NCBI GenBank assembly: GCA_965208125.1
Contig: OZ242320.1
Span: 480,001 to 544,000 of the forward strand
Direction: 5' to 3'
DNA length: 64,000 bases
Origin: Candidatus Latescibacterota bacterium
Lineage (GTDB): Bacteria > Latescibacterota > UBA2968
In this document: positions 5,652 through 39,306 of the stretch, piece by piece
Numbering within the stretch: position 1 is the first letter of the stretch
Layout: every line of letters begins with the position of its first letter
The notes under the pieces: generated by a model
Told to the model about the DNA's origin: nothing
Seen by the model: only the letters and a program-made list of their open reading frames with translations
The model's database searches: none
Made by a program: the position numbers and the translations under genes

Positions 5652-6704
5652 ATGAAAATCGCCGCTCTCATATCCGGTGGTGTCGATAGTTCCGTGGCTT
5701 TGAACATATTAAAAAATGAAAGCCACGACGTGACGGCATTTTACTTAAAAGTATGGCTCGAAGACGAACTCGCTTTCTTAGGGGAATGTCCCTGGGAAAC
5801 CGACCTGAAATTTGTCCGGGCCGTATGCGATCAACTCGATGTCCCGCTACAAGTGATCTCCCTACAATCTGAATACCTCGAACGCGTCGTATCTTATGCA
5901 CTCGACGAATTGCGCGATGGACGCACACCCAGTCCAGATATATTTTGCAATCAGCGAATCAAATTCGGCGCATTCTTTGACCACATAGACAGCAGCTATG
6001 AAAAAGTGGCAACCGGGCATTACGCACAACTCGCACAGAGCAACGGAACTTATCATCTAAAACGCGCACCCGACCCCATCAAAGATCAGACCTACTTCTT
6101 ATCCGGCATGTATCAATCGCAGGTCGCGCAGGCATTATTTCCCATTGGAAACATGATGAAAAGCGAAGTGCGCCAACTCGCGCGAGATTTTGACCTGCCA
6201 AATCAAGCGCGAAAAGACAGCCAGGGAATATGTTTCCTGGGCAAAATCAGATATCCAGACTTTATCGCATTTCATTTGGGCGAAAAAAAAGGCGATATTA
6301 TCGACAGAGAAACCGGACAAATCCTGGGACCCCATCGGGGATACTATTATTACACAATTGGCCAGCGGCATGGCCTGGGATTGGGCGGAGGCCCCTGGTA
6401 CGTCGTACAAAAAGATATCGAGCGCAACATCATCTATGTATCTCACGCCACGAAGCACAAGAACACATCGCGGAACCAATTTATCGCTACAAATCCCAAT
6501 TGGATAGCAGAACCACCTGGCAAAACCGCCCTGCAATTGAAACTGCGCCACGGCCCAGAATTGATCAACTGTGAAATCGAAGCAATGAATAACAACCAAT
6601 TATCCGTAACCATAGCAGAAAAAGATTCCGGCATAGCACCCGGACAATTCGCCGTATTTTACGACGGCGACCTCTGCCTCGGTAGCGCGGTAATTGACCA
6701 CTAA
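5652..6704 (+). CDS. mnmA: tRNA 2-thiouridine(34) synthase
   Basis: SGGVDS PP-loop, PDIFCN.RIKFG, ATGHYA, KDQTYFL, DSQGICF, TIGQRHGL, APGQ. Confidence 0.97.
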   Translation: MKIAALISGGVDSSVALNILKNESHDVTAFYLKVWLEDELAFLGECPWETDLKFVRAVCDQLDVPLQVISLQSEYLERVVSYALDELRDGRTPSPDIFCNQRIKFGAFFDHIDSSYEKVATGHYAQLAQSNGTYHLKRAPDPIKDQTYFLSGMYQSQVAQALFPIGNMMKSEVRQLARDFDLPNQARKDSQGICFLGKIRYPDFIAFHLGEKKGDIIDRETGQILGPHRGYYYYTIGQRHGLGLGGGPWYVVQKDIERNIIYVSHATKHKNTSRNQFIATNPNWIAEPPGKTALQLKLRHGPELINCEIEAMNNNQLSVTIAEKDSGIAPGQFAVFYDGDLCLGSAVIDH

Positions 6705-6719
6705 AAAAGAGAGAGCACA

Positions 6720-7469
6720 ATGAGCATTGAACAAGCGCGTGCCGCCGTTGAATCCGGCGATGTACATACCCTGAAAAGACTGATAGCAGAAGATCCGCAA
6801 CTGGCCAATAAAACCACAGCGGACAATCCCCGCACACTTTTACATACACTCTGCGATTATCCCGCGCACAGACCCAGATGCCGCGAATCCGCAGAAATTT
6901 TGATACGCTCAGACGCAGATGTCAATGCGCGGGCAAAATTCGAAGGAAAAACCGACCCCGGCGAAACACCTCTGCATTGGGCGGCCAGCAGCGACGATGC
7001 GGAAATGATAGAAGTGCTGCTCGACAGTGGTGCGGAAATCGACATCGATGGCGGGGTCATTGCAAACGGCACACCGCTCTGGGAAGCCGTAATATTCGGC
7101 ATGCAAAATGCAGCGGCAAAACTGATCCAGCGCGGGGCGACCTGCAACCTGATGATCGCTGCTGGCGTGGGGCGACTCGATCTCGTTGAGAAATTTTTCG
7201 ATAAGGAAGGCAATATAACGGATCGGGCGGGCGATCTGCCCGGATGGTCGGAACCCCGACCTGCGCGAGCTTGTATCGACAGTGCCTTCGGAATGGCATG
7301 CCGCAATGGGCACCTCGAAACCGCCAGATGGTTGCTGGGCAAAAAACCGGAGATCAACCGCAAAAATCCCGTTGGCGAAACGCCTCTGGATCAAGCCATG
7401 GACAGAAAACACATCGAAGTTGCGAACTGGTTGATGACAATTGGCGCGAAACGATCCGCGAACTTATAA
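6720..7469 (+). CDS. Ankyrin repeat protein
   Basis: GETPLHWAA, GTPLWEAV, ACRNGHLETARWLL, GETPLDQA. Confidence 0.92.
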   Translation: MSIEQARAAVESGDVHTLKRLIAEDPQLANKTTADNPRTLLHTLCDYPAHRPRCRESAEILIRSDADVNARAKFEGKTDPGETPLHWAASSDDAEMIEVLLDSGAEIDIDGGVIANGTPLWEAVIFGMQNAAAKLIQRGATCNLMIAAGVGRLDLVEKFFDKEGNITDRAGDLPGWSEPRPARACIDSAFGMACRNGHLETARWLLGKKPEINRKNPVGETPLDQAMDRKHIEVANWLMTIGAKRSANL

Positions 7470-7496
7470 TGCCACCGCATTAAAGGGAAACTCAAC

Positions 7497-8441
7497 ATGA
7501 ACAAAGTAGGACTGGTTCAGCATCCCGATTTTCAAAAACACGACACCGGAGGCGCACATCCCGAGCGCCCCGAGCGCTTACAAACGCTACATGCCCATCT
7601 GGATGCAACGGGACTGACAAAAGATCTCATAACACTAGAACCCGGACACGTCGATACATCCTGGTTGGAAAAAGCACACACGCCCGAGCACATTGCAAAC
7701 GTAAAAGCACGATGTACACAGGGCATCACGTACATGGACGATTTTGACACCAGAATCTGTCCACTATCTTTTGACATAGCCCGCCTCGCTGTTGGCGCGA
7801 CATTTGAAGCGATTGACGCAGTTATGGACGCGCGTGTACACACGGCTTTTTGTGCCGTACGTCCCCCCGGGCACCACGCCGAACGCAATCACGCAATGGG
7901 ATTTTGTCTATTTAGCAACGCGGTCATAGCCGCGCGATATATACAAGAAACATATTCCCTAAGACGCGTGGCAATTGTAGATTGGGACGTGCATCACGGC
8001 AATGGCACACAGCACATATTGGAAACCGATCCCTCGGTATTCTTCTTTAGCATCCACCAATACCCCCATTATCCCGGCACGGGACGGGCCGACGAAACCG
8101 GCATTGGCGCAGGAGAAGGATTCACACTAAATGCACCCGTGCCCGCAGGCAGCGATGACGCAATGTATTTGCGCATATTCGACGACGTATTTTTGCCCGC
8201 CATGCACGCATTTAAACCACAATTTGTCATTATCTCCGCTGGATTTGACGCGCATCGGTCCGACCCCTTATCGGCCACTCAAGTAACGGAATCCGGTTTT
8301 GCCGAAATGACAAAGCGCGTGATAGCTATCGCACAAGATCACGCAGAAGGACGGCTGATTTCCCTCCTGGAAGGTGGATATGATCTGGGCGGCCTCTCGC
8401 GCAGCGTAGAATCCCACATAAAGGAACTAATGAATGGGTAA
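7497..8441 (+). CDS. Histone deacetylase family amidohydrolase
   Basis: HPERPER, RPPGHH, GFC, DWDVHHGNGT, SAGFD, LEGGY. Confidence 0.95.
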   Translation: MNKVGLVQHPDFQKHDTGGAHPERPERLQTLHAHLDATGLTKDLITLEPGHVDTSWLEKAHTPEHIANVKARCTQGITYMDDFDTRICPLSFDIARLAVGATFEAIDAVMDARVHTAFCAVRPPGHHAERNHAMGFCLFSNAVIAARYIQETYSLRRVAIVDWDVHHGNGTQHILETDPSVFFFSIHQYPHYPGTGRADETGIGAGEGFTLNAPVPAGSDDAMYLRIFDDVFLPAMHAFKPQFVIISAGFDAHRSDPLSATQVTESGFAEMTKRVIAIAQDHAEGRLISLLEGGYDLGGLSRSVESHIKELMNG

Positions 8442-14371: not shown

Positions 14372-14634
14372 ATTAAGTAGATTGATAAATCAATTGGGTG
14401 GTATAGTGATTGCGATGCGCTCAACTCGAATCTCGCAGGACAAAAAGCATGATTTTTGTATAATTATGCATATATGCATTTGTTTTCTCATAGATTTTTA
14501 ATTTTTTATACACGTTAATAGCATTTAATAACTTGCAGCGTGCCGCCAGGGTTACGACAATAAGAGACACGAAGTATTGGCGTACCCATTCTTTTGCACA
14601 CGTATGTATTCCTATACCTGCGAAAATAACGTGT

Positions 14635-17600
14635 ATGTTTGAAAACGGAACGATTCTCGACAAAAGATACCAAATCCAGACACATCTGGGAACCGGGGGC
14701 ATGGGCGAAGTCTATCGGGTGTTGGACCTGGAGCAAAGCCAGGAGTGCGCGCTCAAAATTTTGAATACCATGGTGGATCAGAAGGCTGTGCATCGCCGCT
14801 TCCACAGAGAATTTCAAGTGTTGAACAGATTCCAGCACCCGCGTCTGGTCCGCACATACACCTGGGGCTTTGCCGAAGATCGCCCCTATTTTACAATGGA
14901 CTATTTGCCTGGCAAGACATTGGAAAAAATAATCGCCGATCATGCACATTCAGGGCAATTCCGAGCGTCTCACTTTTTTGCTCTGATACAACAACTTGCC
15001 GAGGGATTGGCTTATATCCACGCGCAGGGTGCAGTGCATCGCGATCTCAAGCCATCCAATATCATGGTTTTGGAAACAGAAGAGGGGCTTGAGACTACGA
15101 TCCTGGATATGGGACTGGCGAAACTCAGGCATCTGCACAGTGCCTCCATTACGCAGACCGGAACAGCCATTGGCACGGCAGAATATATGTCGCCAGAGCA
15201 GGGTAAGGGTCTTTGGGTGGATCATCGATCAGACCTGTATTCATTGGGCGTGATCTTATACGAGATGCTCACGGGCGCACCGCCCTTTTCCGGACAAAAT
15301 CCCATATCTATTATTATGAAGCATATTCGAGAGTCACCCCCACCAATAGGTGAAACCCATATCGCGATTCCCGAACAGACAAAACAAATCGTGCTGAAGT
15401 TGCTGGCAAAGGAGCTTGTTGATCGCTATCAGTCGGCAGAGGAACTCCTGCGTGCCTTACCATCGGGGGTTGTGCTACCCGATGACGAGCAACGCGATGT
15501 ACATAGAAAAGTGATGCGGCCGCAATTTGTCGGGCGCGAATCTGAAATGAAGACATTGCGCGCGATGTTGCAAGATGTACAGGCTGGCGAGCAACGCGTG
15601 GTTCTAATCTCCGGTGAGTCCGGTGTGGGAAAAACGAGACTAATTGAGGAACTATTGGGCGACGCTTTGATCCATGATTTTCTGTGTTTGAAAGGTGCGA
15701 GCCAGGAAGAAGGTGGACAAATATACGGTGCGTTGATCAGTGCTTTTCAAGAGACGGTGGATTCGGTGGCAGAGCTACCCGACCCTGCAGAATCGGACAA
15801 ATTTTCTGTTATGGAACGCTGGTTGCAGTTATTAAAGCGCCTGCGGCACAAACAGCCCATTGTGTTGTGTTTGGAAGATATTCAATGGCTCGATGAATTG
15901 ACCCTGGAATTTTTACAGTATGTGTTGCGCGATCCAGAACCCTGTCCGTTTTTGTTATGTCTGACTTGCCGATGGTCTAACCTGGAGCCGCTTGCAGAGG
16001 AAATTGAGAATTTTATACACAGCAATGAATTTGCTGGTGCTACTCATATTCAGTTGGAAAATCTACCGCGAGAAGAGGCGGGGTATTTAGCGGCGTCGAT
16101 GTTGGGGGAGCGATCTGTACCGCCGGATACCTTGCAAACCCTGTTCAGAGAAACGGGTGGGCAACCCCTGTTTGTCGTGGAGGCGGTGAGGACACTGGTG
16201 CAGGCCGATGTGGTTCGGCAGAATGTGTCCGGCGATTGGCAGTGGGGAGAATTTCCCGAAACATTATTATCCGATGATATTTCAGAGGTTTTGTACAGGC
16301 GCATAACTACTCTGCCTGATGTGCAACAGCGGGTGCTGGAATATTCGTGTGTTTTTCTGAGTGATTTTTCTTTTGAATTATTAGCTTCGGTTTGGCGTGG
16401 TGATGAGTTGGAGTTGTTAGATGTACTGGACGACTTGATTGCAGGAGAGCTTTTGACAGCTTGTGGAGAAGGCGAAGATCAATATCGATTTTCACAGGGT
16501 TTGTATCAGCAGGCAATTTATGACCGCCTGCAAGATGTGCGGCGGCGTCTGTTACATCGAGAAATTGGCAATGCTTTGGAAGAGACGGAAGATGCGGAAG
16601 AATTGGCGGAAGAATTGGCGGATCATTTTGCGGCGGCAGAAGGACGAGATAAGGCTGTGAAATATGCGCGTATGGCAGGCAAAAAAGCATTGGAACAACA
16701 CGCTTATCGCCAGGCAATGAGAAAGTTCGAGGCTGTGCGGAACTGGACAGCGGATGACACCTTTGATTCACCTGCAAATGCCATCGACTTTTTGTGTGAT
16801 TATGCAGATGCGTTGCGCAATTGTAGTCAGCACAATTGCGCACTGGAACTTTTAGACGAGGCAAAAGCATTATTGCCCGTTGATAATAAAGATTTAAAGG
16901 CGCGTATTTTGAACGACCAGGGTGAAATTCAAAGCGTACTGCAACATGGGGAAATAGCAGAAAAATATATGCTGGAGGCATTGCAACTTTATCGTGAACT
17001 CGGTGATTTTGAGGGTGAAATTCAGGCGTTGGGTAGTTTGGCTTATTTGTGTGATGTGTCTGAACGACACAAAGATGCTATTGCATATATGCGTCGGGAA
17101 ATAGAGAAACGTAGTATGTTGGGAGACCCGCAAAATGAGGCTTTTATACAAGGACGAGAAAGTCAGGCGGCATTGGTCGAGTTTCGATTTGAGACAGCTA
17201 AGGGGCATTTGGAGACTGCTACAAAGGCCTTTCAGCAACCTGGACTTGAACACCAACGCATTTGGGTACTCAATTTACTTCCAAGAGTTTATTTTTATCT
17301 GGGTGATTTCAATCGTGCAGAAGCCGTTTGCAACGAAGCAATTAGTGAATGGCAGAAGCGAGGCGTTGTGTACTGGGAAGCGATGAATTTTCTCTATCTG
17401 GGAGAATTGGCTCTGGAACAAGGTAATTTTGTCGAGGCTCTGGAATACGCCGAGACCTCATCAGAACGATTTTTGCAAACACCGAGAAGAGATTATGTCT
17501 ATAGCGCTTATGCGATTGCAGCAACGGCTGCTGCGAGAATGGGAGATACAGAAGCAGCACTTGAATGGGCAGAAAAAGCCAGTGAAGGAGTGCAGCAAGC

Positions 17601-19443
17601 ATCGGGTATGTACACGGGCATATTGCCCCTGGTGCATTGTGGTATTGGTGTTGCTTTGGCTCAAGCAGGGCGGATAACCGAGGCTGAAGAGGCTTTTGAG
17701 CAGTCTATTGAATGCCGTAGAGAATCCAAAGGCGACCACTGGGCGCGTGCATTGCTGATGGCTGGGGAGTTTTATCTCCAACGCGATGATATGACCAGAG
17801 CTACAGCACATCTCGAAGCGGCAAAACAGGCATTTAGAGAAATGGAAATGTCTTATTTTCTGGAGAAAACACAGGTGTTATTAAATCAATTTGATGGATC
17901 TTCTCGAGGCGGAGATGATGCCCCAACCCGTAGCTCTGAGATTTCAGTCGAGACGTTGTCTGTTGATCGCTTGCGCTTCCTCTACGATGTGAGCAGGGAA
18001 TTGACAACAGAACGCGATGTCAGAGTGTTATTGGACCGGATTTTGGGTAATTTGTTGGCTGTTTATCCAGCAGAGCGCGTGCTTGTTGCGCTAAAAAATG
18101 ATACACCAAAAGGCTTTATGGTTGATGCTGTGCGCCACTACAATTTAGAGGTAGATGATATAGAAGCACTGAGCCAGGGTATTATTCGCCAAGTTATTGA
18201 GACAAATGAACCCGTTTTGAGCTTTGATGCCCAGACAGACGAAAGATTCAATCGGTACCAAAGCGTAATAGATTACCACATTCGGTCTGTATTGTGCGTG
18301 CCCGTATTCCATCTTAACGAAGGTGTGATGGGTGCGCTGTATGTGGATCATCGCGGCATGGGCAACGCATTTTCTGAAGCCGATCAGACGTTTTTGCAGG
18401 CATTTGCTAATCTGGTAGGCGTGGCACTGGTCAATGCGAGGATGTACGAACAATTGGAAGAGAAAGCACAATATTTGCAACAACAGGTCGAAAGGCGATA
18501 TCAGCTTGACGACCTGATCGGACAAAGTGATGCCATGCAGAGGGTTTACCAGCTTATCGAACGCGCTGCAAAGAGTGATATTCCCGTGCTTATTCAAGGT
18601 GAAACAGGTACGGGCAAGGGATTGGCTGCGCGTGCCATACACTACAATAGTGCATGCAAAAACCAGCGATTTTTGTCGCAAAATTGTGCTGCTCTTTCAC
18701 CAGAGTTGTTGCAGAGTGAGTTGTTTGGGTACAAAAAAGGTGCGTTTACCGGGGCGACTGAAGATCACATGGGGATTTTTGAGGCTGCCAATGGCGGTAC
18801 GGTTTTTCTGGATGAAATCGCCGATGCCCCGCCACAGTTGCAAAAGAGTTTGTTGCGGGTGTTGCAAGAGGGTGAGATTCGGCGTGTGGGAGAAACAGAG
18901 GATCGCACAGTGGATGTACGCATTATTGCAGCGACCAATCGGGACTTAAAAAAAGAAGTAGAACAAGGGAGGTTTCGCGAAGATTTGTATTATCGGTTGC
19001 ACGGGATTCAGATCGATATGCCACCTTTGCGAGAACGCATGGAAGATGTGCCGTTATTGGCCGAACATCTGCTCATCCGAACAAAAGAAGATGCAAACAA
19101 GTCGGTTGGGAGGCTGACAGTGGGGGCAATCAGGGCGCTCACAAGTTATGACTGGCCGGGCAATGTGCGCGAGTTGGAAAATAAGGTTCGACTTGCGGTC
19201 GCATTGTCGGAAGAAGGTAGTGAAATCACGTCCGATTTGTTTTCAGAAGCTGTCGGGCACGCACTGTCAGATACTCCTGTTGAATACCAGGAGCGTTTAC
19301 AAGATCGTGTTCGGGAATATGAGAAACGATTGATTATGGATGCGCTCGAGAAATGCGTGGGCAATATTACACATACAGCTGAAGAATTGGGCATGACGCG
19401 CGCGGGTTTACAAAAAAAGATCAATCGTTTGGGGTTGAGATAG
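14635..19443 (+). CDS. Multidomain sigma54 enhancer-binding protein: Ser/Thr kinase - AAA ATPase - TPR - GAF - sigma54 AAA+ - Fis HTH
   Basis: LGTGGMGEVY, HRDLKPSN, GTAEYMSPEQ, FVGRE, GESGVGKT, EDIQW.D, TGGQPLF, TPR-like helices, GAF (SVLCVP..GALYVD), GETGTGK, GAFTGA, WPGNVREL, C-terminal HTH. ATG 14635 preferred over TTG 14533. Confidence 0.93.
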   Translation: MFENGTILDKRYQIQTHLGTGGMGEVYRVLDLEQSQECALKILNTMVDQKAVHRRFHREFQVLNRFQHPRLVRTYTWGFAEDRPYFTMDYLPGKTLEKIIADHAHSGQFRASHFFALIQQLAEGLAYIHAQGAVHRDLKPSNIMVLETEEGLETTILDMGLAKLRHLHSASITQTGTAIGTAEYMSPEQGKGLWVDHRSDLYSLGVILYEMLTGAPPFSGQNPISIIMKHIRESPPPIGETHIAIPEQTKQIVLKLLAKELVDRYQSAEELLRALPSGVVLPDDEQRDVHRKVMRPQFVGRESEMKTLRAMLQDVQAGEQRVVLISGESGVGKTRLIEELLGDALIHDFLCLKGASQEEGGQIYGALISAFQETVDSVAELPDPAESDKFSVMERWLQLLKRLRHKQPIVLCLEDIQWLDELTLEFLQYVLRDPEPCPFLLCLTCRWSNLEPLAEEIENFIHSNEFAGATHIQLENLPREEAGYLAASMLGERSVPPDTLQTLFRETGGQPLFVVEAVRTLVQADVVRQNVSGDWQWGEFPETLLSDDISEVLYRRITTLPDVQQRVLEYSCVFLSDFSFELLASVWRGDELELLDVLDDLIAGELLTACGEGEDQYRFSQGLYQQAIYDRLQDVRRRLLHREIGNALEETEDAEELAEELADHFAAAEGRDKAVKYARMAGKKALEQHAYRQAMRKFEAVRNWTADDTFDSPANAIDFLCDYADALRNCSQHNCALELLDEAKALLPVDNKDLKARILNDQGEIQSVLQHGEIAEKYMLEALQLYRELGDFEGEIQALGSLAYLCDVSERHKDAIAYMRREIEKRSMLGDPQNEAFIQGRESQAALVEFRFETAKGHLETATKAFQQPGLEHQRIWVLNLLPRVYFYLGDFNRAEAVCNEAISEWQKRGVVYWEAMNFLYLGELALEQGNFVEALEYAETSSERFLQTPRRDYVYSAYAIAATAAARMGDTEAALEWAEKASEGVQQASGMYTGILPLVHCGIGVALAQAGRITEAEEAFEQSIECRRESKGDHWARALLMAGEFYLQRDDMTRATAHLEAAKQAFREMEMSYFLEKTQVLLNQFDGSSRGGDDAPTRSSEISVETLSVDRLRFLYDVSRELTTERDVRVLLDRILGNLLAVYPAERVLVALKNDTPKGFMVDAVRHYNLEVDDIEALSQGIIRQVIETNEPVLSFDAQTDERFNRYQSVIDYHIRSVLCVPVFHLNEGVMGALYVDHRGMGNAFSEADQTFLQAFANLVGVALVNARMYEQLEEKAQYLQQQVERRYQLDDLIGQSDAMQRVYQLIERAAKSDIPVLIQGETGTGKGLAARAIHYNSACKNQRFLSQNCAALSPELLQSELFGYKKGAFTGATEDHMGIFEAANGGTVFLDEIADAPPQLQKSLLRVLQEGEIRRVGETEDRTVDVRIIAATNRDLKKEVEQGRFREDLYYRLHGIQIDMPPLRERMEDVPLLAEHLLIRTKEDANKSVGRLTVGAIRALTSYDWPGNVRELENKVRLAVALSEEGSEITSDLFSEAVGHALSDTPVEYQERLQDRVREYEKRLIMDALEKCVGNITHTAEELGMTRAGLQKKINRLGLR

Positions 19444-19454
19444 ACGTTGAACAG

Positions 19455-19577
19455 GTGCATCCAACTGTATGCAGTAGTGCATCCGACTGTATGCACCTGT
19501 CTATCCTTATATAATTCAGACAGTTATGTTGATTTTCTTTAAATAAGCGATTTATAGGTGCATCCAACTGTATGCAC
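19455..19577. promoter_or_regulatory. Three palindromic enhancer-like (UAS) sites GTGCAT-N8-ATGCAC
   Basis: GTGCATCCAACTGTATGCAG (19455), GTGCATCCGACTGTATGCAC (19477), GTGCATCCAACTGTATGCAC (19558), about 110-230 bp upstream of a sigma54 promoter. Confidence 0.8.
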
Positions 19578-19685
19578 TTACACCAGAATCTCGCAGATTT
19601 AGCACAAATCATTCTCAAATTTTATCTCTTTGTTTTTCAAGCACTTGAGCACATTCAAGTGCTTTTTTTTATTCTGAGACGATTT

Positions 19686-19702
19686 TTGGCACGGATCTTG
19701 CA
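19686..19702 (+). promoter_or_regulatory. sigma54 -24/-12 promoter
   Basis: TTGGCACGGATCTTGCA matches the consensus TGGCACG-N4-TTGC. Confidence 0.9.
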
Positions 19703-19757
19703 CTATAAAGAGGGCAAACCGTTATGGCACAGGATTTTTCCATTAAAGGAGGATAAC

Positions 19758-19937
19758 ATGGCAACACGACGCAAGTTGAATTTGATCAATGGAACGATAG
19801 ATCAAGAAGGTAGCATCCTCAGGTATCAAGCTACGAACAGTTTCGAAGTAGGTGCCTGTCCCCCTGGTAGGGTGGTTGTTCCGACTCTGCCCTTTCCCGA
19901 TGATGACGATAGAGACGAATTTGATCCGGCTGAGTGA
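19758..19937 (+). CDS. Putative RiPP precursor peptide (59 aa)
   Basis: AAGGAGG RBS; MATRRKLNLINGTIDQEGSILRYQATNSFEVGACPPGRVVVPTLPFPDDDDRDEFDPAE; directly upstream of an RRE-radical SAM gene. The ORF-track start at 19572 lies upstream of the promoter. Confidence 0.8.
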   Translation: MATRRKLNLINGTIDQEGSILRYQATNSFEVGACPPGRVVVPTLPFPDDDDRDEFDPAE

Positions 19938-19965
19938 ATTATCTCTATTCTGAGGAGTACCTGGC

Positions 19966-21408
19966 ATGCTGTGTATTCAAAAATGCGACATACATCTTTT
20001 TCAAACTGAAGAGCACAAACAGCCGATTGTCTATCAGGTTGAGACCGGTCTGTTTTTTAAACTGGATACTCTTTTCCAGTCAATTTTAGAGTGCTGCGAG
20101 GGGTTGTCTGCTTCGCAGGTTATTCAGATGCTGGCTGATCAATACGAGGCAGAAGAGATTGTCGAGGCTATCGAGGAACTGGCTCAGGTGGGTTTGATTT
20201 CGGATGGTGCTCTACCTGTGGTAGCCAATGTGCCGACAACAGAAGGGGTGGCAGCCTGTGGGGTTTCGCAGACAGATCGGTTGCAGGTGTCGTTGCACGT
20301 TTCGCATACGTGCAATATCCAATGTGCGTATTGCTTTGCTCACGGTGGGGATTACGGCGGTAAGGCTATGCTGATGCAACCAGAGGTTGCTGAGCAAGCG
20401 ACACGCTGGATTGTCACCGAGGCTCAGGTGTTCGGGCGGTGCCAGATTGATTTTTTTGGCGGGGAGCCGCTCTTGAATTTTCCGCTGCTGCGCGAGTTGG
20501 TACCGTCTGCCAAATCCCTGGGCGCGCGATTGGGTGTGCAGGTTGGTTTTGGCATTGTGACCAATGGCACGTTGTTGACCGACGAGATGAAGCAGTTTTT
20601 GATTGATGAAAAGTTTCAGATTAAAGTCAGCCTGGATGGGGGACGTAAAACACAGGATCGCATTCGCAAGTTTCACAATGGTTCTGGAACTTATGATGTC
20701 GTGGCAAAGAATGTACAGAAACTGACTGCTGAGGTACCTGAGCGCGTGTATTTGCAGGCTGTTATGACAGCGTATGATATGGATGAGGATCAGATTGCCG
20801 ATGCGTTGCGTTCTCTGGGTACTGAAAACGCGCTCATCGATCCGGCTGTCGTTTCACCGGATGCGCCCTATGCGATTCGAGAAGAACACATACCTGTTTT
20901 GAAGCAACAAATTTACAAGCGAAGCCGGCGTGCGCTCAAAGCCATTTTGAATGGTGAAGAGTGTGAAGAGTTTGATCCGCGGATTCAAAAATTGCTGACA
21001 CGCAAAAAATCCTGTCACGGGTGCCTGGGTGGCAAGCAGTATTTGGCGATTGCAGCAGACGGATCGATTTATTTTTGTTCGAGTTTGGCCGACGCGCCCG
21101 AGTTTAAGATGGGTGATGTGTTTGCGGGTATTGATCGCGAAAAGCAGCAGCATTTTGACGCGCAGTTCAATGTGAATAATCGTCCTGAGTGCAAGACATG
21201 CTGGGCGCGCAACTTGTGTGGTGGCGGATGTCTTTGGGATGCGCGGACGACAACGGGTGATCCGATGTATCCAAACCCAGTTTCCTGTGAACAGACGCGC
21301 TATCGCTATGAGTTGGCGATGGAGATGTGTATGGAAATTGCAGAAGCAGATGCGTCTTTGTTGCCGCGACGATATGATCTGGAAGTGGCATCTGAAGCAG
21401 ACAAGTAA
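19966..21408 (+). CDS. Radical SAM/SPASM peptide maturase with N-terminal RRE (PqqD-like) domain
   Basis: N-terminal 'VYQVETGLFFKLD...EEIVEAIEELAQVGLI'; CNIQCAYC; FFGGEPLLN; TNGTLL; SLDG; SPASM C...YLAIAADGSIYFC...CKTCWARNLCGGGC...C. CteB/QhpD-like architecture. Confidence 0.92.
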   Translation: MLCIQKCDIHLFQTEEHKQPIVYQVETGLFFKLDTLFQSILECCEGLSASQVIQMLADQYEAEEIVEAIEELAQVGLISDGALPVVANVPTTEGVAACGVSQTDRLQVSLHVSHTCNIQCAYCFAHGGDYGGKAMLMQPEVAEQATRWIVTEAQVFGRCQIDFFGGEPLLNFPLLRELVPSAKSLGARLGVQVGFGIVTNGTLLTDEMKQFLIDEKFQIKVSLDGGRKTQDRIRKFHNGSGTYDVVAKNVQKLTAEVPERVYLQAVMTAYDMDEDQIADALRSLGTENALIDPAVVSPDAPYAIREEHIPVLKQQIYKRSRRALKAILNGEECEEFDPRIQKLLTRKKSCHGCLGGKQYLAIAADGSIYFCSSLADAPEFKMGDVFAGIDREKQQHFDAQFNVNNRPECKTCWARNLCGGGCLWDARTTTGDPMYPNPVSCEQTRYRYELAMEMCMEIAEADASLLPRRYDLEVASEADK

Positions 21409-21425
21409 ATTTTCATAGCATTTGC

Positions 21426-21468
21426 AAAACTATCCTTAAGCTTACAAACTTAAGGATAGTTTTTTTTT
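21426..21468 (+). terminator. Intrinsic terminator closing the precursor-maturase transcript
   Basis: AAAACTATCCTTAAG...CTTAAGGATAGTTTT plus poly-T. Confidence 0.9.
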
Positions 21469-21524
21469 CTGAAAAATCCGTATATTCTAATACCATTTGA
21501 TATTGAGATTAGTAGAGGTGAACC

Positions 21525-22712
21525 ATGTTAAGATCAAATGTTGAATGGAAAAAAAAATATACAAGTACAGTTAAAATATCTATAGGCTTACTTTGTCTTG
21601 CGTCGTTCATTGCCTGTGGTGCTTCGAAAAGTATTGATTCTGATGTTCTATTTTTCGGTGATATACCACCATTGTCGTCAATGGATCATTTGGCAATCAT
21701 CGGAGGCGCAACAAACAAATCAATTGTTGTTGTTGATATTGCAAATAAGAAACAAGCAGGTACAATCACTTTCGAAAAAATTATTCAAGGATGTGCTATC
21801 TCACCCCAGGATAGAAGCATCTGGTTGACATTTACTTTTTGGAGTAATCAGAAAGGGATATTTAAGCTCAATTTTGACAGCAAACCCGAGATTGTAAACC
21901 TTATTCCGGATTTACAAGGCAACTTGCATTTCAACCATGATGGACGAAGACTTTATGTCACGCCAGGTTCTGAAAAGCTTTACATTATTGACACACAATC
22001 CAATCAATTAGTGGAGACAGTTTCTACCATTACCGGAAATCACGGAGAAGGTTGGGCATTTTTTAACGCCAGTGAAGCACAAAATGGACTGATTGCTTTA
22101 ACGGGTATGCCTCTGCGATTTGAAGCTGTAAATGAAGGATTCAACGTTTATTCTGATTATACAAAAACCTTTCTCTTTTTACTTGATGAAAAACGAACTG
22201 TTATACCGCTTGAGTTTGTTGGGGGATTTTCGACTCCCCCGATTTTTTCATTTGATAACAGATTAATAAGCACACTCAGTAAAGAAGAAAAATCAGTCTC
22301 AATTTATGATCTTGATTCTAAAAAAATGAACAGTATTCCTATTGGTGGAGATGTTGTGACATTCGGTGGATACGATAACGACAATGACATTTTCTATGTT
22401 TTATCAAGAAATTTTGATCGAGAATACGGAATTTTAGAAGGCATCACCACCCTGATATTATTGGACATAAGATCCAAAAGCATCATTGATACGCGCACCA
22501 TAGCCGGTAATTATTGGAACGGTGTGTATGATAGAGTATCTCAGACCATCCTATTGGTAGGGCCACATACTGAGGATGTGCGTGAAATACATAATAGAAC
22601 AATTCCTATTTCCAGTTTAACGATTTATGATCCGCATCAAGACCAAATTGTTGATCATATTTCAATTGATGGAGGAACATCCCTGGGAGCTGAGATTTTC
22701 TTGGCCCCCTAA
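21525..22712 (+). CDS. YncE-like beta-propeller lipoprotein
   Basis: Signal peptide ending FIAC; blade motifs 'IVVVDIANKK..GTI', 'FNHDGRRLYVT..KLYIIDT', 'VSIYDL'; AT-rich. Confidence 0.7.
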   Translation: MLRSNVEWKKKYTSTVKISIGLLCLASFIACGASKSIDSDVLFFGDIPPLSSMDHLAIIGGATNKSIVVVDIANKKQAGTITFEKIIQGCAISPQDRSIWLTFTFWSNQKGIFKLNFDSKPEIVNLIPDLQGNLHFNHDGRRLYVTPGSEKLYIIDTQSNQLVETVSTITGNHGEGWAFFNASEAQNGLIALTGMPLRFEAVNEGFNVYSDYTKTFLFLLDEKRTVIPLEFVGGFSTPPIFSFDNRLISTLSKEEKSVSIYDLDSKKMNSIPIGGDVVTFGGYDNDNDIFYVLSRNFDREYGILEGITTLILLDIRSKSIIDTRTIAGNYWNGVYDRVSQTILLVGPHTEDVREIHNRTIPISSLTIYDPHQDQIVDHISIDGGTSLGAEIFLAP

Positions 22713-22928: not shown

Positions 22929-23423
22929 CTACTGTTTGCTGAGTTTTGATATTAATCTATTTATCTCTTTTGCCATTTGATCCACAGATTCTTGAGGCCG
23001 CTTGATCGGAATTGGAATAATGCCATTACGAATTTCTGAGACTATAATCGGTACTCCAACCAGCTTTTCATCTATGATTATACCAATACGCTTTTTGAGA
23101 TAGGTGCGGCTTATGGTCCGGAATTTTTCACTTCCTTCTGGATTACAGTGCAATAATAGAGTTGTATAAGGACTCGGGTTAGATGTTTGTGTAATGGTTG
23201 CACGTTTAATATCAGAAAGGCCCAAAAGAACCTCAGGCTTAAGTGCGGATTGCTTACCCGAATCTATCAATTCCATGACAGATGAACTGTCGCTTCTATT
23301 GGTATCGATAAGTCGTACCTGAATATATGTTTTATCTATAGTCTGTTCTTTACCTTGAGCAGGATTTAGTGCACCAAACAAAGCTGACAGAATGCTCAGA
23401 CCGAAAAGTCTTAGAATATGCAT
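22929..23423 (-). CDS. Secreted stand-alone SecDF P1-head-like domain protein
   Basis: Signal peptide; 'EGSEKFRTISRTYLKKRIGIIIDEKLVGVPIIVSEI' resembles the SecD motif 'G.F..T...G.rlAIvLD...SAP.I...I'. Confidence 0.7.
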   Translation of the reverse strand: MHILRLFGLSILSALFGALNPAQGKEQTIDKTYIQVRLIDTNRSDSSSVMELIDSGKQSALKPEVLLGLSDIKRATITQTSNPSPYTTLLLHCNPEGSEKFRTISRTYLKKRIGIIIDEKLVGVPIIVSEIRNGIIPIPIKRPQESVDQMAKEINRLISKLSKQ

Positions 23424-23836
23424 TTGTGCCCCCATTCTTTTTCCTTAAGTTCCGGAATCAATCTGGTCAAAGACTTGATGGCGTTTCGATTTTAGCTGAT
23501 TCAAAGTCAATACCATCTTGGTTAGAATTTACGCCTCTTCAAATTAGTTCTCTTCCTCCCGATGAGGAAGTAGAAATTTTTTTGATGACATGGGACGTGA
23601 AGTCGGTAGCAGTCACTGTTAAGGATGATTTTTTGACATTGGGGACACAGGTTCCATATGGTCAGGCTTGGAAGATGGCGGGAGTGGTGCCTCACATGTC
23701 CATCTGCTTGTAAAACAAATTGGACATGCAATGACTCTTCACTTCCCGAAGACGCAAATTCCTTTTGTGACAGATCGGAGTTTATTGTTATTTTTATGAG
23801 TAGATCGCCTTATGATGAAAAAAGAAAGGAATTGTT

Positions 23837-24712
23837 GTGAAACGAATATTTTTGGTGTTCTTTTGCCTATCTTTGGGGTTGGTTGGTTCTTTACCTGCTA
23901 TTCAGAAAATGCAGATTACAGAACCTTCTCAACTACCAGAAGATCGTATGCTTCCCGACATTCCCTGGCCTCAAAGTTTGATACAGAAAATAGAAGGCCT
24001 TCATGTGGAACTTGTCGGATATCTAAAATCAGAAAATCATGAGATGTACGTATCAAGGATGGAAGAATTTTTAAATGAGGAGATTCATGATACGGAGTCT
24101 CTATTGGTACTAAACTATACAATAGGGCAAATGTGCCGGTTTGTAGCTTATGAGAAATCGGATGCTGATGTACGCCGTAGATGGTACCAAAAGGCGGTTG
24201 GATTCAACAAGACTGCGATTGAACTTGCACGCACGGATTCTTCCAAATTCAAACCCTATCTGGTCAGATGCTACTTTGGTCTTGCTGAGTGCTATGATGG
24301 GTTAGAAGAAAAAAATCTTGCTCTGGACATGTATCAGCGTTTGGTTGGTTTCAAGGGGGTTGGACACGGAAAATTGAAGGATGACCTTGCTTCAGGTGGC
24401 ATTGGCAATGTTGTTCGCCTATGGAGAGACTTACAGCGCGATCCTGTCGAGTTGCGTAAATATCTAAGAAATATAGCGACATCGAATATGGACAACGAAA
24501 TAGGTTTCGTAGCACTTCAAAAATTGGTTGACTTCGATTTATTAGAAGGAAATTTGCAGATTGCAAGAACTACTCTGAATGAACTGAAGATGCGTTATGG
24601 TGATATTCAAAAATTAGGCGGCCAGATGCCTTCACTTCAAATTAAAGGACTTGAAGATCAATTTAATATTGCGGAAAAATCTAAACATAAAGAACCTGGT
24701 CATAAGCATTGA
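23837..24712 (+). CDS. Secreted TPR-like helical protein
   Basis: GTG start, signal peptide MKRIFLVFFCLSLGL; TPR-like 'YFGLAECYDGLEEKNLALDMYQRL'. Confidence 0.65.
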   Translation: MKRIFLVFFCLSLGLVGSLPAIQKMQITEPSQLPEDRMLPDIPWPQSLIQKIEGLHVELVGYLKSENHEMYVSRMEEFLNEEIHDTESLLVLNYTIGQMCRFVAYEKSDADVRRRWYQKAVGFNKTAIELARTDSSKFKPYLVRCYFGLAECYDGLEEKNLALDMYQRLVGFKGVGHGKLKDDLASGGIGNVVRLWRDLQRDPVELRKYLRNIATSNMDNEIGFVALQKLVDFDLLEGNLQIARTTLNELKMRYGDIQKLGGQMPSLQIKGLEDQFNIAEKSKHKEPGHKH

Positions 24713-24760: not shown

Positions 24761-25651
24761 ATGCATAAAATTTCAGACTTCAAAATGTCGGAACAGCTTA
24801 GTCTGGACACAGGCTGGAGCATTGGTGAGAGAGCGTTTGAGAGAATAGAAACTTTGCTTCGTCAGATGTCTCCAGTAGAAAAAATTCTCGAATTTGGAAG
24901 TGGTCCGAGTTCTATCCGTCTGGCGATGGCGTTTTCTGAAGCCGAGGTTCTGTCTATAGAAGGCGACTGGCGGAATTATTTAGAGACCACGAGTCTGATG
25001 CGAGCATTATGGGATAAGCGCAATCTCTCGATCAAATATCGTCCAATTACACTTGAATCTTATGGAGACGCGGAATTTTTGACTTATGAAGATGGGATGT
25101 TTTGGGAGGAAGAGTTGGATTGCGTGATTATTGATGGTCCACCTGTCTATACCTTGCGAGGTCGAGAGGCGTGTCTCTACCAGGTTTATGATCAGATCAA
25201 GACTGGTGGTCTGGTTATTCTGGATGATTTCAGAAGGCGATTTGAGAAGCAAATTGTCAAGAACTGGCTGTCCGTCTATCCCGATAGTTTTACAGTGGCG
25301 ATTATCCGCGAAGACCACCATCTGGCCGTGCTGCACAAGATCAAATCCGTGACACCGTGTTGGGATGCGCCTTGTAGGCTTTCGGATGTTCAAACTGTCA
25401 GTAAAACTCGCGCTCGAATTGCAAAGGCATTATCGCATGTTGATGATGTATATTTGAGAACGTTGATCAAAGCTACTAACAGTGAAACAGATTTGATTGG
25501 CCTGTTCAATACCCTTCGCAACATCCATGGAGTGACGCCTGAGCATATCCAGGCGTTCGCGGACCGAACTACACTCCCACCGGAAACTCAAAAAAGAAAA
25601 CAGAATGCCTGTTATATGACAATCGTCAATGAGTTTTTCCAGAACGGTTAA
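24761..25651 (+). CDS. Class I SAM-dependent methyltransferase-like protein
   Basis: ILEFGSGPSS, VLSIE, CVIIDGPP...R..C, GGLVILDD. Confidence 0.8.
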   Translation: MHKISDFKMSEQLSLDTGWSIGERAFERIETLLRQMSPVEKILEFGSGPSSIRLAMAFSEAEVLSIEGDWRNYLETTSLMRALWDKRNLSIKYRPITLESYGDAEFLTYEDGMFWEEELDCVIIDGPPVYTLRGREACLYQVYDQIKTGGLVILDDFRRRFEKQIVKNWLSVYPDSFTVAIIREDHHLAVLHKIKSVTPCWDAPCRLSDVQTVSKTRARIAKALSHVDDVYLRTLIKATNSETDLIGLFNTLRNIHGVTPEHIQAFADRTTLPPETQKRKQNACYMTIVNEFFQNG

Positions 25652-25846
25652 ATGAAGACGAAGCGCGCTAACAGGCAGGGATAGTCAAACTATCTGCGTT
25701 CAGGCTCAAAAGTGATTGTCCCGAATTGAAATCTTTTCAAAATTGGCTGTAGATCATTTACTTGCTTAAAAACGGCATCCAAATGGGGAGCGCTCTATTA
25801 GATGCCGTTTGTTTTGCTTTTTTGGGTGGGCGACAGATTGTTAGTA

Positions 25847-26839
25847 ATGGGAGAAATATATCAATCAAAAAAATCCGGCCTCAATAAATGGCCGCTCATT
25901 GGACAGCATTCCTCACTCTTAGACGTGCAAAAGCGCGCGTACCGCGTGGCAAATAGCGAATTGCCCGTCAACATCAGTGGAGAAACTGGCACGGGCAAGG
26001 AATTGCTCGCCCGTTATGTTCACGGCATTAGCCACCGCAACAGGGGACCATTTGTAACCGTTGACTGCGGCATACTCTCTTCTGAAATGGCGCGCAGCGA
26101 GTTATTTGGACATGTTCGAGGTGCTTTTACCGGCGCCAGCGAAACGCGCACTGGACTGGTTGAATCTGCCCGAGGCGGTACGTTATTCCTCGATGAAGTA
26201 GGCGAATTGCCAGCCAATCTTCAGTTACAATTGCTCCGCCTGGTACAGGAACAGGAATTTCGCCGCGTAGGCGAAGCATCCATGCGCCGGTCCGATGTGC
26301 GCCTGATCACTGCGACACACTGCAACTTGCGAAAAATGGTGCGAAAAGGGACTTTCCGAGAAGATCTCTATTACCGCTTAACTGTCGTCCCTCTGCATTT
26401 GCCACCCCTGCGAAAGCGGATGAGCGATTTGCCACTTCTGGTCACGCATTTTTGCCAGGAAATGAAAGGATACACCCGCGCATTTTCCCCCGAAGTGATT
26501 CAAAAGATGTCGCGTTATGCATGGCCGGGCAATGTTCGGGAACTACAACACGAAGTCGCCCGATTAATGGTCATGGCCGAAGGTAAAATTATCCGCGTAT
26601 CCGATTTGCGCCCTCGCATTCGAGGATCCAAAGCAGAGGTCGATGTATTTGACCTCCCGTTTAAGGAAGCCAGACAACTGGCGAACAGCCAGTTTATGCG
26701 AGAGTATCTTCACAGAGCTTTGCAGCGAACACAGGGCAATGTAACCCAGGCAGCGCAACAATGCGGGATTGGCCGACAGTATTTCCAATTGCGTATGTCT
26801 GAATACGGGCTAAAGTCGGCATCTTACAAACAAAAATAA
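25847..26839 (+). CDS. sigma54 enhancer-binding protein without an N-terminal sensor domain (PspF-like architecture)
   Basis: GETGTGKEL, SELFGH.RGAFTGA, LFLDEVGEL, FREDLYYRL, WPGNVREL, Fis HTH; only about 15 aa precede the AAA+ domain. Confidence 0.88.
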   Translation: MGEIYQSKKSGLNKWPLIGQHSSLLDVQKRAYRVANSELPVNISGETGTGKELLARYVHGISHRNRGPFVTVDCGILSSEMARSELFGHVRGAFTGASETRTGLVESARGGTLFLDEVGELPANLQLQLLRLVQEQEFRRVGEASMRRSDVRLITATHCNLRKMVRKGTFREDLYYRLTVVPLHLPPLRKRMSDLPLLVTHFCQEMKGYTRAFSPEVIQKMSRYAWPGNVRELQHEVARLMVMAEGKIIRVSDLRPRIRGSKAEVDVFDLPFKEARQLANSQFMREYLHRALQRTQGNVTQAAQQCGIGRQYFQLRMSEYGLKSASYKQK

Positions 26840-39089: not shown

Positions 39090-39188
39090 GATAATCCTCC
39101 CCGTTACAAGTAGAACGAATTAAAAACTATTAACCCATTAGACACACCTGGTAAATAATGGGGTGGAAAGTTTTTCACCCAAAATGAA

Positions 39189-39306
39189 GCAATTTCTGTG
39201 CCAAAATCCTCTTCTCTATGTTTTACAAGGAGTTATAAAAATTAGTGCCATGGGCACAGTTCAATAAGTGTCCGATTTTGATACAGTAGTGTCCGAAAAT
39301 GAACAC
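39189..39306 (-). promoter_or_regulatory. sigma54 promoter with tandem upstream enhancer-like sites
   Basis: Minus strand TGGCACAGAAATTGC (39203-39189); imperfect palindromes GTGTCCGATTTTGATACA (39268) and GTGTCCGAAAATGAACAC (39289). Confidence 0.7.

Follow-up and report, generated by a model that had tools for sequence, protein, structure and literature searches.

We report a two-gene cassette in a 64,000-nucleotide stretch of DNA from a Candidatus Latescibacterota bacterium (assembly GCA_965208125.1, contig OZ242320.1, positions 480,001 to 544,000; hereafter, the window), in which a gene encoding a 59-amino-acid (aa) peptide is followed by one encoding a radical S-adenosylmethionine (SAM) enzyme that has a SPASM domain and a predicted N-terminal RiPP recognition element (RRE). 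Because a fast-evolving gene for a one-cysteine peptide stands beside a thioether-type radical SAM enzyme gene, under a sigma-54 regulator of its own, this cassette very likely represents an undescribed family of modified peptides. RRE-bearing radical SAM-SPASM enzymes are a known route to crosslinked peptides, and in ranthipeptides a radical SAM enzyme installs a thioether between cysteine sulfur and a non-alpha carbon. We are highly confident that the cassette is a genuine precursor-maturase pair. The reaction that we favor, and consider reasonably probable, is the formation of a single cysteine-derived thioether that would close a ring over a variable loop, which would make the family ranthipeptide-like.

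A conserved precursor gene and its distribution

The precursor gene (19758..19937, plus strand) begins with an ATG at 19758 that is preceded by a ribosome-binding site (GGAGG, 19748-19752), and its 59-aa open reading frame (ORF) is closed by a TGA at 19935-19937. A spacer of 28 nucleotides (nt) with its own GAGGAG leads to the next ATG (19966), which opens the maturase gene (19966..21408, plus strand; 480 aa). An intrinsic terminator (21426..21473, plus strand), with a 15-pair stem followed by the T-run TTTTTCTGAA (21426-21463), ends the transcript, and a sigma-54 promoter bounds it on the other side. The layout proposed in the original prediction, which was made from the window's letters alone, is therefore present in every element, and the closed two-gene transcript that it described has a promoter at one end and a terminator at the other. 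A 121-aa frame starting at 19572 was rejected as a mere upstream extension of the peptide ORF; it crosses both this promoter and a terminator-like hairpin (19639..19664, plus strand; 11 pairs, then the T-run TTTTTTAT) that lies 3' of the regulator gene and 5' of the promoter.

The full peptide reads MATRRKLNLINGTIDQEGSILRYQATNSFEVGACPPGRVVVPTLPFPDDDDRDEFDPAE. It has one cysteine (C34), no tryptophan, the stretch CPPGRVVVPTLPFP, and the tail DDDDRDEFDPAE, and can be divided into a leader of approximately residues 1-26 (MATRRKLNLINGTID.EG.I), C34, a variable six-residue loop (35-40), the motif VP..PFP (41-47), and an acidic tail (48-59). No NCBIfam or Pfam family matched the peptide at E <= 1, and a search of the ESM Atlas returned no usable match. 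After removal of duplicates, we compared 44 distinct loci, 35 of which are designated close, as their enzymes are 89-100% identical. The scan upstream of homologous enzymes suggested with the original prediction revealed an intact peptide ORF 5' of the enzyme gene in 34 of the 35 close loci, the 35th being interrupted by the start of its contig. The gap between the two genes is 21-29 nt in 32 of the 35 loci and 304 nt in two (L011 and L028). The 304-nt insertion in those two loci (2645-2948 in L011 and 3697-4000 in L028) contains a conserved 52-aa ORF (MSVQ.LIKKRDHLAYLSLLYAIWGNEV...) and shortens the acidic tail of the peptide, which ends ...DDF; both loci also carry a conserved 77-aa ORF 3' of the maturase gene.

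A profile built from 33 peptides was searched against 5.8 billion clustered proteins and recovered 259 relatives (E <= 0.01). Those with names are hypothetical proteins; gene callers do list such peptides, and the description of the ORF as hidden does not apply in general. All counts of motifs, cysteines, loops, and tails given here for relatives refer to the best 120 of the 259. All 120 have C-x6-[VI]P..PFP; exactly one cysteine is present in 103 and two in 17, and 76 distinct six-residue loops follow the cysteine. A tail tryptophan (D-W-D) occurs in 104 and DDR[DN], as in the window, in 25, the two counts overlapping; the reported lack of tryptophan thus describes the window copy and fails for the family. 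Many relatives have one glycine or none before the cysteine, and a double-glycine leader cleavage site was rejected as a conserved feature. Longer forms of the peptide number only 7 (114-122 aa), and the four that we inspected (P0241, P0243, P0246, and P0247) are N-terminally over-extended through the promoter region. Since the longer forms are over-extended calls, the peptide is not a remnant of a larger gene, and the concern that it might be the decayed 5' end of one was laid to rest.

Mean pairwise identity is 0.66 among the peptides versus 0.91 among their enzymes. Using pooled pairwise counts from 34 codon-aligned peptides, we obtained a ratio of nonsynonymous to synonymous change (dN/dS) of 0.33 for the whole peptide and 0.11 for the enzyme. 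Within the peptide, the ratio is 0.26 in the leader, 0.45 in the linker, 0.95 in the six residues after the cysteine, 0.12 in VPPLPFP, and 0.23 in the acidic tail; because the sequences are kin, these figures are descriptive and do not constitute a test. The cysteine codon has changed only synonymously (pS 0.90, pN 0). Residues M1, K6, L7, L9, N11, G12, C34, V41, P42, F46, P47, and D49 are invariant; F55 reaches at least 90% conservation among the sequences. Collectively, the peptide is encoded by a real gene that is under selection and co-conserved with the enzyme. A hypervariable loop of constant length between invariant residues is, moreover, the pattern that would be expected of a crosslink-closed ring.

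A scan of species-representative genomes yielded 37 loci, 33 of which are labeled Latescibacteria or Latescibacterota, often with 2-3 per genome. A relative at E <= 1e-60 was found in 26 of 168 genomes of the phylum, which span 7 of 49 genera and include, within the window's own genus, 15 of the 20 other genomes. The genome from which the window was taken has a second cassette (C1:2465520-2467161), whose peptide shares 61% and whose enzyme shares 92% identity with the window counterparts. In its region (G000:C1:2464020-2467190; L002/L005), a paralogous regulator and the promoter TGGCACGAATTTTGCA accompany a peptide of 60 aa and the maturase, after which comes a methyltransferase-like gene.

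In the more distant clades (enzymes of 42-54% identity), the ORFs upstream of the enzyme gene keep a ..[LIV]NG leader motif and a single conserved cysteine, followed by a stretch rich in proline and aromatic residues. More specifically, those of the 50-54% clade retain L.[LIV]NG..D..G.I with a cysteine ~15 residues later and continue as C.WP.FP[ILV]LPPP, and those of the 42-46% clades read M.RKRH.[KR]LVNG...LSC.P.[FY]P.... Judged from these alignments, the family-wide features are the leader motif, one cysteine at a set distance from it, and the proline/aromatic-rich stretch, rather than aspartate or glutamate. Some of these loci have peculiarities of their own. In L037 (3602-3952; 50% clade), the peptide homolog lacks an in-frame ATG and its conserved part lies inside a 116-aa frame started by TTG, and in L061 (1256-1508) leader and core fall in two different frames, reflecting a frameshift or an assembly error. 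A second RRE-containing radical SAM-like gene is located 3' of the maturase gene in L057, L061, L063, L064, and L066; it keeps CX3CX2C in L057, and the motif is apparently replaced in the stretch inspected in L063 and L064 (..NITNDTLLGVEENVAYM..), so that it may be a degenerate paralog. A scan of metagenome contigs with the clade alignment returned no further members of the peptide-maturase clade, only SCIFF-type matches of 27-35% identity, which we used solely as an outgroup. The outgroup loci (27-32% identity) are ordinary SCIFF systems, and in 24 of 29 the upstream peptide has at least 5 cysteines.

Maturase architecture, modeled leader binding, and the predicted crosslink

The enzyme was placed by hidden Markov model scores and a search of the PDB. 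Pfam recognized Radical_SAM (55 bits; cutoff, 29.5), SPASM (24.6 bits; cutoff, 21.5), and Fer4_12 (above threshold), and the enzyme belongs to the radical SAM/SPASM peptide maturases, having CX3CX2C and a SPASM domain with the cysteines for two clusters. Its best NCBIfam matches are the SCIFF maturase (TIGR03974; 265.3 bits; cutoff, 425), QhpD (TIGR03906; 248.1 bits; cutoff, 453), the Nif11-peptide maturase (TIGR04064; 244.4 bits; cutoff, 518.7), "not_ScfB" (234.3 bits; cutoff, 855), and PapB (NF047865; 225.5 bits; cutoff, 340). Lower scores were obtained for anSME (TIGR03942; 110.7 bits; cutoff, 349) and for the cyclophane maturases YhhB (NF041707; 86.7 bits; cutoff, 445) and FxsB (TIGR04269; 72.6 bits; cutoff, 370). 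The closest solved structure is CteB (5wgg; E 7.8e-60; enzyme residues 20-452), with anSME structures as the second-best matches. The neighborhood of CteB, QhpD, and PapB in which the enzyme had been placed beforehand agrees with these results, all family matches being below cutoff.

The cysteines C116, C120, and C123 (CX3CX2C) align with those of the CteB radical SAM cluster, C353, C371, and C422 with those of auxiliary cluster 1 (AC1), and C409, C412, C418, and C441 with those of auxiliary cluster 2 (AC2). All ten (3 + 3 + 4) correspond one-to-one to CteB and are invariant in a 66-sequence alignment down to 28% identity, and C350 has no CteB counterpart and is less than 90% conserved. The assignment of clusters follows CteB, in which AC1 has three cysteine ligands and AC2 has four, as given in the consulted part of the source (PMC10177961). 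Given that the cysteines match those of CteB while all cutoffs are missed, the enzyme has the cofactor architecture of thioether formers yet falls outside every curated family.

The N-terminal region of the enzyme that contains the putative RRE aligns with the N terminus of CteB, and binding of the leader to it was modeled. The complex model, for which we used our own alignments and included three 4Fe-4S clusters and SAM, was run three times, with three controls. It reached an interface score (ipSAE) of 0.86 in 3 of 3 runs, versus 0.02 for the best control; 58 of 80 solved complexes attain the mark set for this score, as do 2 of 110 mismatched pairs. The runs shared at least 40% of their contacts, and the predicted local distance difference test (pLDDT) of the partner was 48-62. 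Confident contacts join peptide residues 4-14 and 18-26 to enzyme residues 21, 28-37, 64-77, 341-346, and 452-477, with leader residues 4-14 modeled on residues 28-37 and 64-77, i.e., on the RRE. Since the CteB-CteA complex has already been solved, passing this test indicates likeness to that binding mode rather than independent proof. According to the model, then, the leader binds the RRE. The SCIFF-type echo that had been heard in the leader is likewise a real resemblance, as outgroup SCIFF leaders read, for example, MKHIKTLN...GGC, compared with RRKL(T/N)LING...GGC in the window family.

These data bear on whether the small ORF is a substrate at all. It might instead have a regulatory role as an upstream ORF, or be a by-product of the promoter region, with the radical SAM enzyme maturing another protein elsewhere in the genome, a view that is encouraged by the missing protease and exporter and by the fact that the product is undetected. 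Relatives of QhpD and anSME, furthermore, act on proteins. We hold this to be very improbable, given a leader that is modeled on the RRE with a score so far from that of the best control, purifying selection that is specific to residues (leader, cysteine, VPPLPFP, and tail), a constant architecture across 259 relatives, and the strong ribosome-binding site that the peptide has to itself.

With the peptide as substrate, we envisage that the precursor leader (K6 L7. L9. N11 G12) would pair as a strand with the N-terminal RRE of the enzyme, and that C34, whose distance from the leader motif is constant, would be delivered to the three-cysteine AC1, as in CteB, PapB, and Tte1186. A 5'-deoxyadenosyl radical would then take hydrogen from a residue C-terminal to the cysteine, and the thiolate would close one thioether ring. 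This ring would most likely span the six-residue loop and end at or beyond V41-P42, with V41, F46, and D49-D51 as candidate acceptors. Glutamate at C-4 was rejected as an upstream acceptor; several loci have K, Q, or G instead. In the consulted part of PMC10177961, PapB is described as forming Cys-Asp C-beta links in CX3D motifs and Tte1186 as forming a single Cys-Thr link, and a selenocysteine substrate of Tte1186 binds iron, most likely at AC1.

Among known systems, SCIFF (CteB/CteA thermocellin and Tte1186/Tte1186a) offers the closest parallel. It too is a two-gene peptide-maturase cassette without a protease or exporter, its maturase is the best NCBIfam and PDB match of the window enzyme, and the two share CX3CX2C, a SPASM domain whose 3 + 4 auxiliary cysteines align one-to-one, and a related leader, with an N-terminal RRE predicted in the window enzyme; Tte1186 also makes a single crosslink (PMC10177961, consulted part). 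However, enzyme identity is only ~30% and the equivalog cutoff is missed. A SCIFF precursor has ~45 aa and six cysteines, whereas the window peptide has 59 aa, one cysteine, and no CxxC/SC-rich core; its family shows a longer linker, a proline-rich core, and, in this genus, an acidic tail. In addition, the window taxon is Latescibacterota, whereas the named SCIFF maturases among the matches come from clostridial-type Firmicutes, and the window cassette has a sigma-54 promoter and a dedicated giant regulator.

The PapB/PapA (freyrasin) system has a homologous radical SAM-SPASM enzyme with the same predicted cluster scheme (PMC10177961, consulted part). Its Cys-to-Asp C-beta thioethers would suit an Asp-rich peptide, but PapA has six CX3D motifs and the window peptide none (C+4 is Arg, and the first Asp is at C+14), NF047865 is missed, and conservation of Asp does not extend to the wider family. 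As the 50-54% clade has no acidic tail, Asp or Glu is not a family-wide acceptor; the case for the Asp/Glu acceptors considered in the original prediction is accordingly weakened as a general rule, though such acceptors are possible within the genus. For QhpD/QhpC of quinohemoprotein amine dehydrogenase, the second-best NCBIfam match, the likeness is that most relatives of the window peptide carry a cysteine, a tryptophan, and many aspartates. In a small subunit that bears a Cys-Trp quinone as well, QhpD reportedly links cysteine to carbons of Asp/Glu. Its cutoff is not reached, however; the window's genome has only two QhpD matches, both sub-threshold, and 14 control genomes gave none above cutoff. 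No dehydrogenase subunit genes occur among the cassette's neighbors (QhpA, QhpB, and QhpC were not searched genome-wide), tryptophan is dispensable in the window family (arginine in the window copy), and the peptide has 59 aa and a hypervariable loop. The enzyme is likewise outside the Nif11-leader maturases, with TIGR04064 below cutoff and a peptide without a Pfam or NCBIfam family, and outside the cyclophane/triceptide maturases represented by YhhB and FxsB. As judged from these comparisons, the cassette appears to work like the SCIFF, PapB, and QhpD systems while belonging to none of them.

Two other chemistries were weighed against the thioether. The enzyme could act on the single cysteine without any crosslink, as in an anSME-like oxidation to formylglycine or to a thioaldehyde-derived product, with the aldehyde or its derivative being functional. 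The cysteine is indeed the only residue conserved across all clades, there is no common acceptor, P, S, or A occupies C+2 in 115 of 119 six-residue loops, and TIGR03942 and the anSME structures do match. Enzymes of the anSME type lack an RRE and act on the motif C/S-x-P/A-x-R, and the C-P-P-G-R of the window copy fits the sulfatase motif C-x-P-x-R. We nevertheless regard this chemistry as quite unlikely, as Arg is found at C+4 in only 8 of the 119 loops, the TIGR03942 score is far under its cutoff and under those of the thioether maturases, and the enzyme has a predicted RRE and a CteB-type three-cysteine AC1 with no extra ligand, C350 being less than 90% conserved and lacking a CteB equivalent. 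In the second, a C-C (cyclophane/triceptide-like) or ether crosslink would form on an aromatic/proline segment (F46-P47-D48 or W-D-D), with the cysteine as a cluster anchor or in another role. An invariant F46, the conserved F55, an aromatic-proline pair after the cysteine in every clade, and the weak YhhB and FxsB matches would all fit. Cyclophane scores are threefold lower than those of the thioether maturases, though, the cysteine codon shows no nonsynonymous change, and arginine replaces tryptophan in the window copy, as in the DDR[DN] tails counted above against D-W-D, which together make such a crosslink unlikely.

Several observations weigh against the thioether-ring reading. At 19.8 bits, the Pfam match to PqqD/RRE (residues 22-77) does not reach the gathering score of 23.4, and no NCBIfam thioether-maturase model is reached at its cutoff, so that the chemistry is not transferable by family membership. 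The complex model is confident for the leader alone; it left the core unplaced and gave no acceptor. In the 50-54% clade the acidic tail is absent, and the wider family has no conserved acceptor residue. The cassette contains no protease, exporter, or immunity gene, and a released product is for that reason not assured; in keeping with what had been stated at the outset, no protease or transporter is conserved beside the cassette in the loci compared. Finally, the evidence for expression is weak and consists of RNA-library contigs that match relatives of the enzyme gene at 85-99%. Three studies supplied these contigs, from four metatranscriptome libraries of sponge or related origin (51, 158, 36, and 4 contigs aligned), and they provide a weak hint, of presence in RNA libraries rather than of a transcript, its start, or its level. 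One contig of 2587 nt begins at window position 19748 and for 55 nt covers the start of the peptide region, after which 173 different letters stand in place of 163 in the window before it runs on through the enzyme gene. A search of sequencing runs gave no run with half or more of the sampled words of the stretch, the best DNA run reaching 0.38. We nonetheless continue to favor one cysteine-derived thioether.

Sigma-54 promoter, operators, and the giant activator

The promoter, TGGCACGGATCTTGCA, is of the -24/-12 (sigma-54) type and lies at 19687..19702 (plus strand), 56 nt 5' of the peptide start codon. Exact matches to TGGCAC-N5-TTGCW number two in the window versus 0.17 expected; the other one (39188-39203, minus strand) may be another sigma-54 promoter. 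In all 34 of 34 close loci, GGCAC-N5-TTGC occurs at most 120 nt upstream of the peptide start. This final count replaced those from a strict pattern, TGGCA[CT]-N5-T[TC]GC[ATC], which was found in 17 of 44 loci, and from a relaxed one, found in 24 of 38 with two false placements. The genome also contains rpoN (429.6 bits; cutoff, 277).

Upstream of the promoter, a gene at 14533..19443 (plus strand) encodes a 1,636-aa enhancer-binding protein, in which Pfam recognizes a Ser/Thr kinase, AAA_16/STAND, TPR, GAF, a sigma-54 activator AAA+ domain, and a Fis-type helix-turn-helix (HTH). A homolog is located directly 5' of the peptide-radical SAM pair in 42 of the 44 distinct loci, including distant ones with 41-60% identity, and we propose this protein as a regulator dedicated to the cassette.

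Three copies of TGCATCC(A/G)ACTGTATGCA, that is, TGCAT-N8-ATGCA, separate the regulator gene from the promoter (19456..19576, plus strand) and are proposed upstream activating sites. They are the only three matches in the 64-kb window, versus 0.01 expected, and their start-to-start spacing is 22 and 81 nt. The operator class TGCAT-N8-ATGCA was assigned to 18 close loci and TGTAT-N8-ATACA to 8. Neither class applied to 11 close loci, two of which were inspected and have TGTAA-N8-TTACA (L007) and a variant (L032). In the three loci measured (the window, L007, and L032), the spacing is 19-22 and 80-82 nt. Elsewhere, the operators are found at about 1205-1345 in L002, 3485-3615 in L007, and 3486-3605 in L032.

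The HTH tail of the regulator varies along with the operator. All 14 TGCAT loci from which it was extracted have TRAGLQKK, and all 6 such TGTAT loci have TRVGLHKK; as the loci are kin, this co-variation should be read as a pattern, not as a statistic. In the window's genome, the two cassettes fall into different operator classes. These observations suggest paralogous circuits with matched operators that are insulated from one another, and we infer that each cassette is driven by its own regulator. The giant kinase-STAND-TPR-GAF enhancer-binding protein would bind the three operator sites and activate the -24/-12 promoter, and the resulting transcript would encode the 59-aa precursor and the RRE-radical SAM-SPASM maturase and end at the strong terminator.

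Neighboring genes and biological meaning

A gene for a divergent class I (O-) methyltransferase-like protein (24761..25651, plus strand; 296 aa) lies 3.3 kb 3' of the maturase gene and is a candidate accessory tailoring enzyme. The evidence for its family is weak (Pfam Methyltransf_24, E 0.003; PDB 2gpy O-methyltransferase, E 0.0013). A homolog is present at most 430 nt downstream of the maturase gene in 13 of the 35 close loci, with a gap of 6 nt in L007, L017, and L032, and a role in tailoring is possible. The three genes that stand between the two in the window encode a beta-propeller lipoprotein (21525-22712), a SecDF-P1-like protein (22929-23435, minus strand), and a TPR protein (23837-24712). 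Further to the right, a 345-aa sigma-54 activator with AAA+ and HTH but no sensor domain (25802-26839) adjoins a UvrD-like helicase; the two form the right-hand flank conserved in one cassette lineage and occur in 11 other loci besides the window. In L007, a 635-aa tyrosinase/hemocyanin-like ORF (6527-8434) follows the methyltransferase-like gene; it was seen in this locus only and is absent from L009.

Our literature searches found no published description of the precursor family, no paper that brings together Latescibacteria, radical SAM, and RiPPs, and, among the papers listed on ranthipeptide and SCIFF precursors, no mention of a single cysteine. For sponge-associated Latescibacterota metagenome-assembled genomes, the consulted part of one study reports antiSMASH "ranthipeptide" and "RRE-containing" clusters as counts of cluster types (PMC12993501). 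These clusters share the phylum, the habitat, and the broad class label with the cassette and are possibly the same loci, but the precursor, the regulator, and the family are not described in that part.

In the most speculative reading, each circuit would consist of its own giant activator, a matching half-site (TGCAT, TGTAT, or TGTAA), a maturase, and a peptide. The thioether ring would display a hypervariable six-residue loop, evolving under diversifying or relaxed selection, beside an acidic, aromatic tail and a polyproline motif that does not vary. Autoinduction is conceivable, as the mature peptide might be sensed by the TPR/GAF regulator, and the crosslink could be chemistry new to this enzyme clade. 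PPLPF resembles ligand motifs of eukaryotic WW and EVH1 domains. In this reading, to which we give rather low odds, the cassettes could be private signaling or host-interaction modules of sponge symbionts, with 2-3 insulated circuits per genome and the loop as the specificity determinant.

To our knowledge, the substrates of nearly all characterized relatives of CteB, PapB, and QhpD contain multiple cysteines, and the Latescibacterota, which are uncultured and sponge-associated, have almost no characterized natural products. The natural substrate that this family offers would be minimal, with a single cysteine and a single ring, and nature provides at least 259 variants of it, most of whose differences fall in a loop fixed at six residues; a built-in sigma-54 switch with paralog-specific operators comes with it. 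Its two-gene size suits direct heterologous testing, and it would provide a system for asking how such an enzyme chooses its acceptor carbon, what role ranthipeptide-like products play, and how duplicated regulator-operator pairs are insulated from each other.

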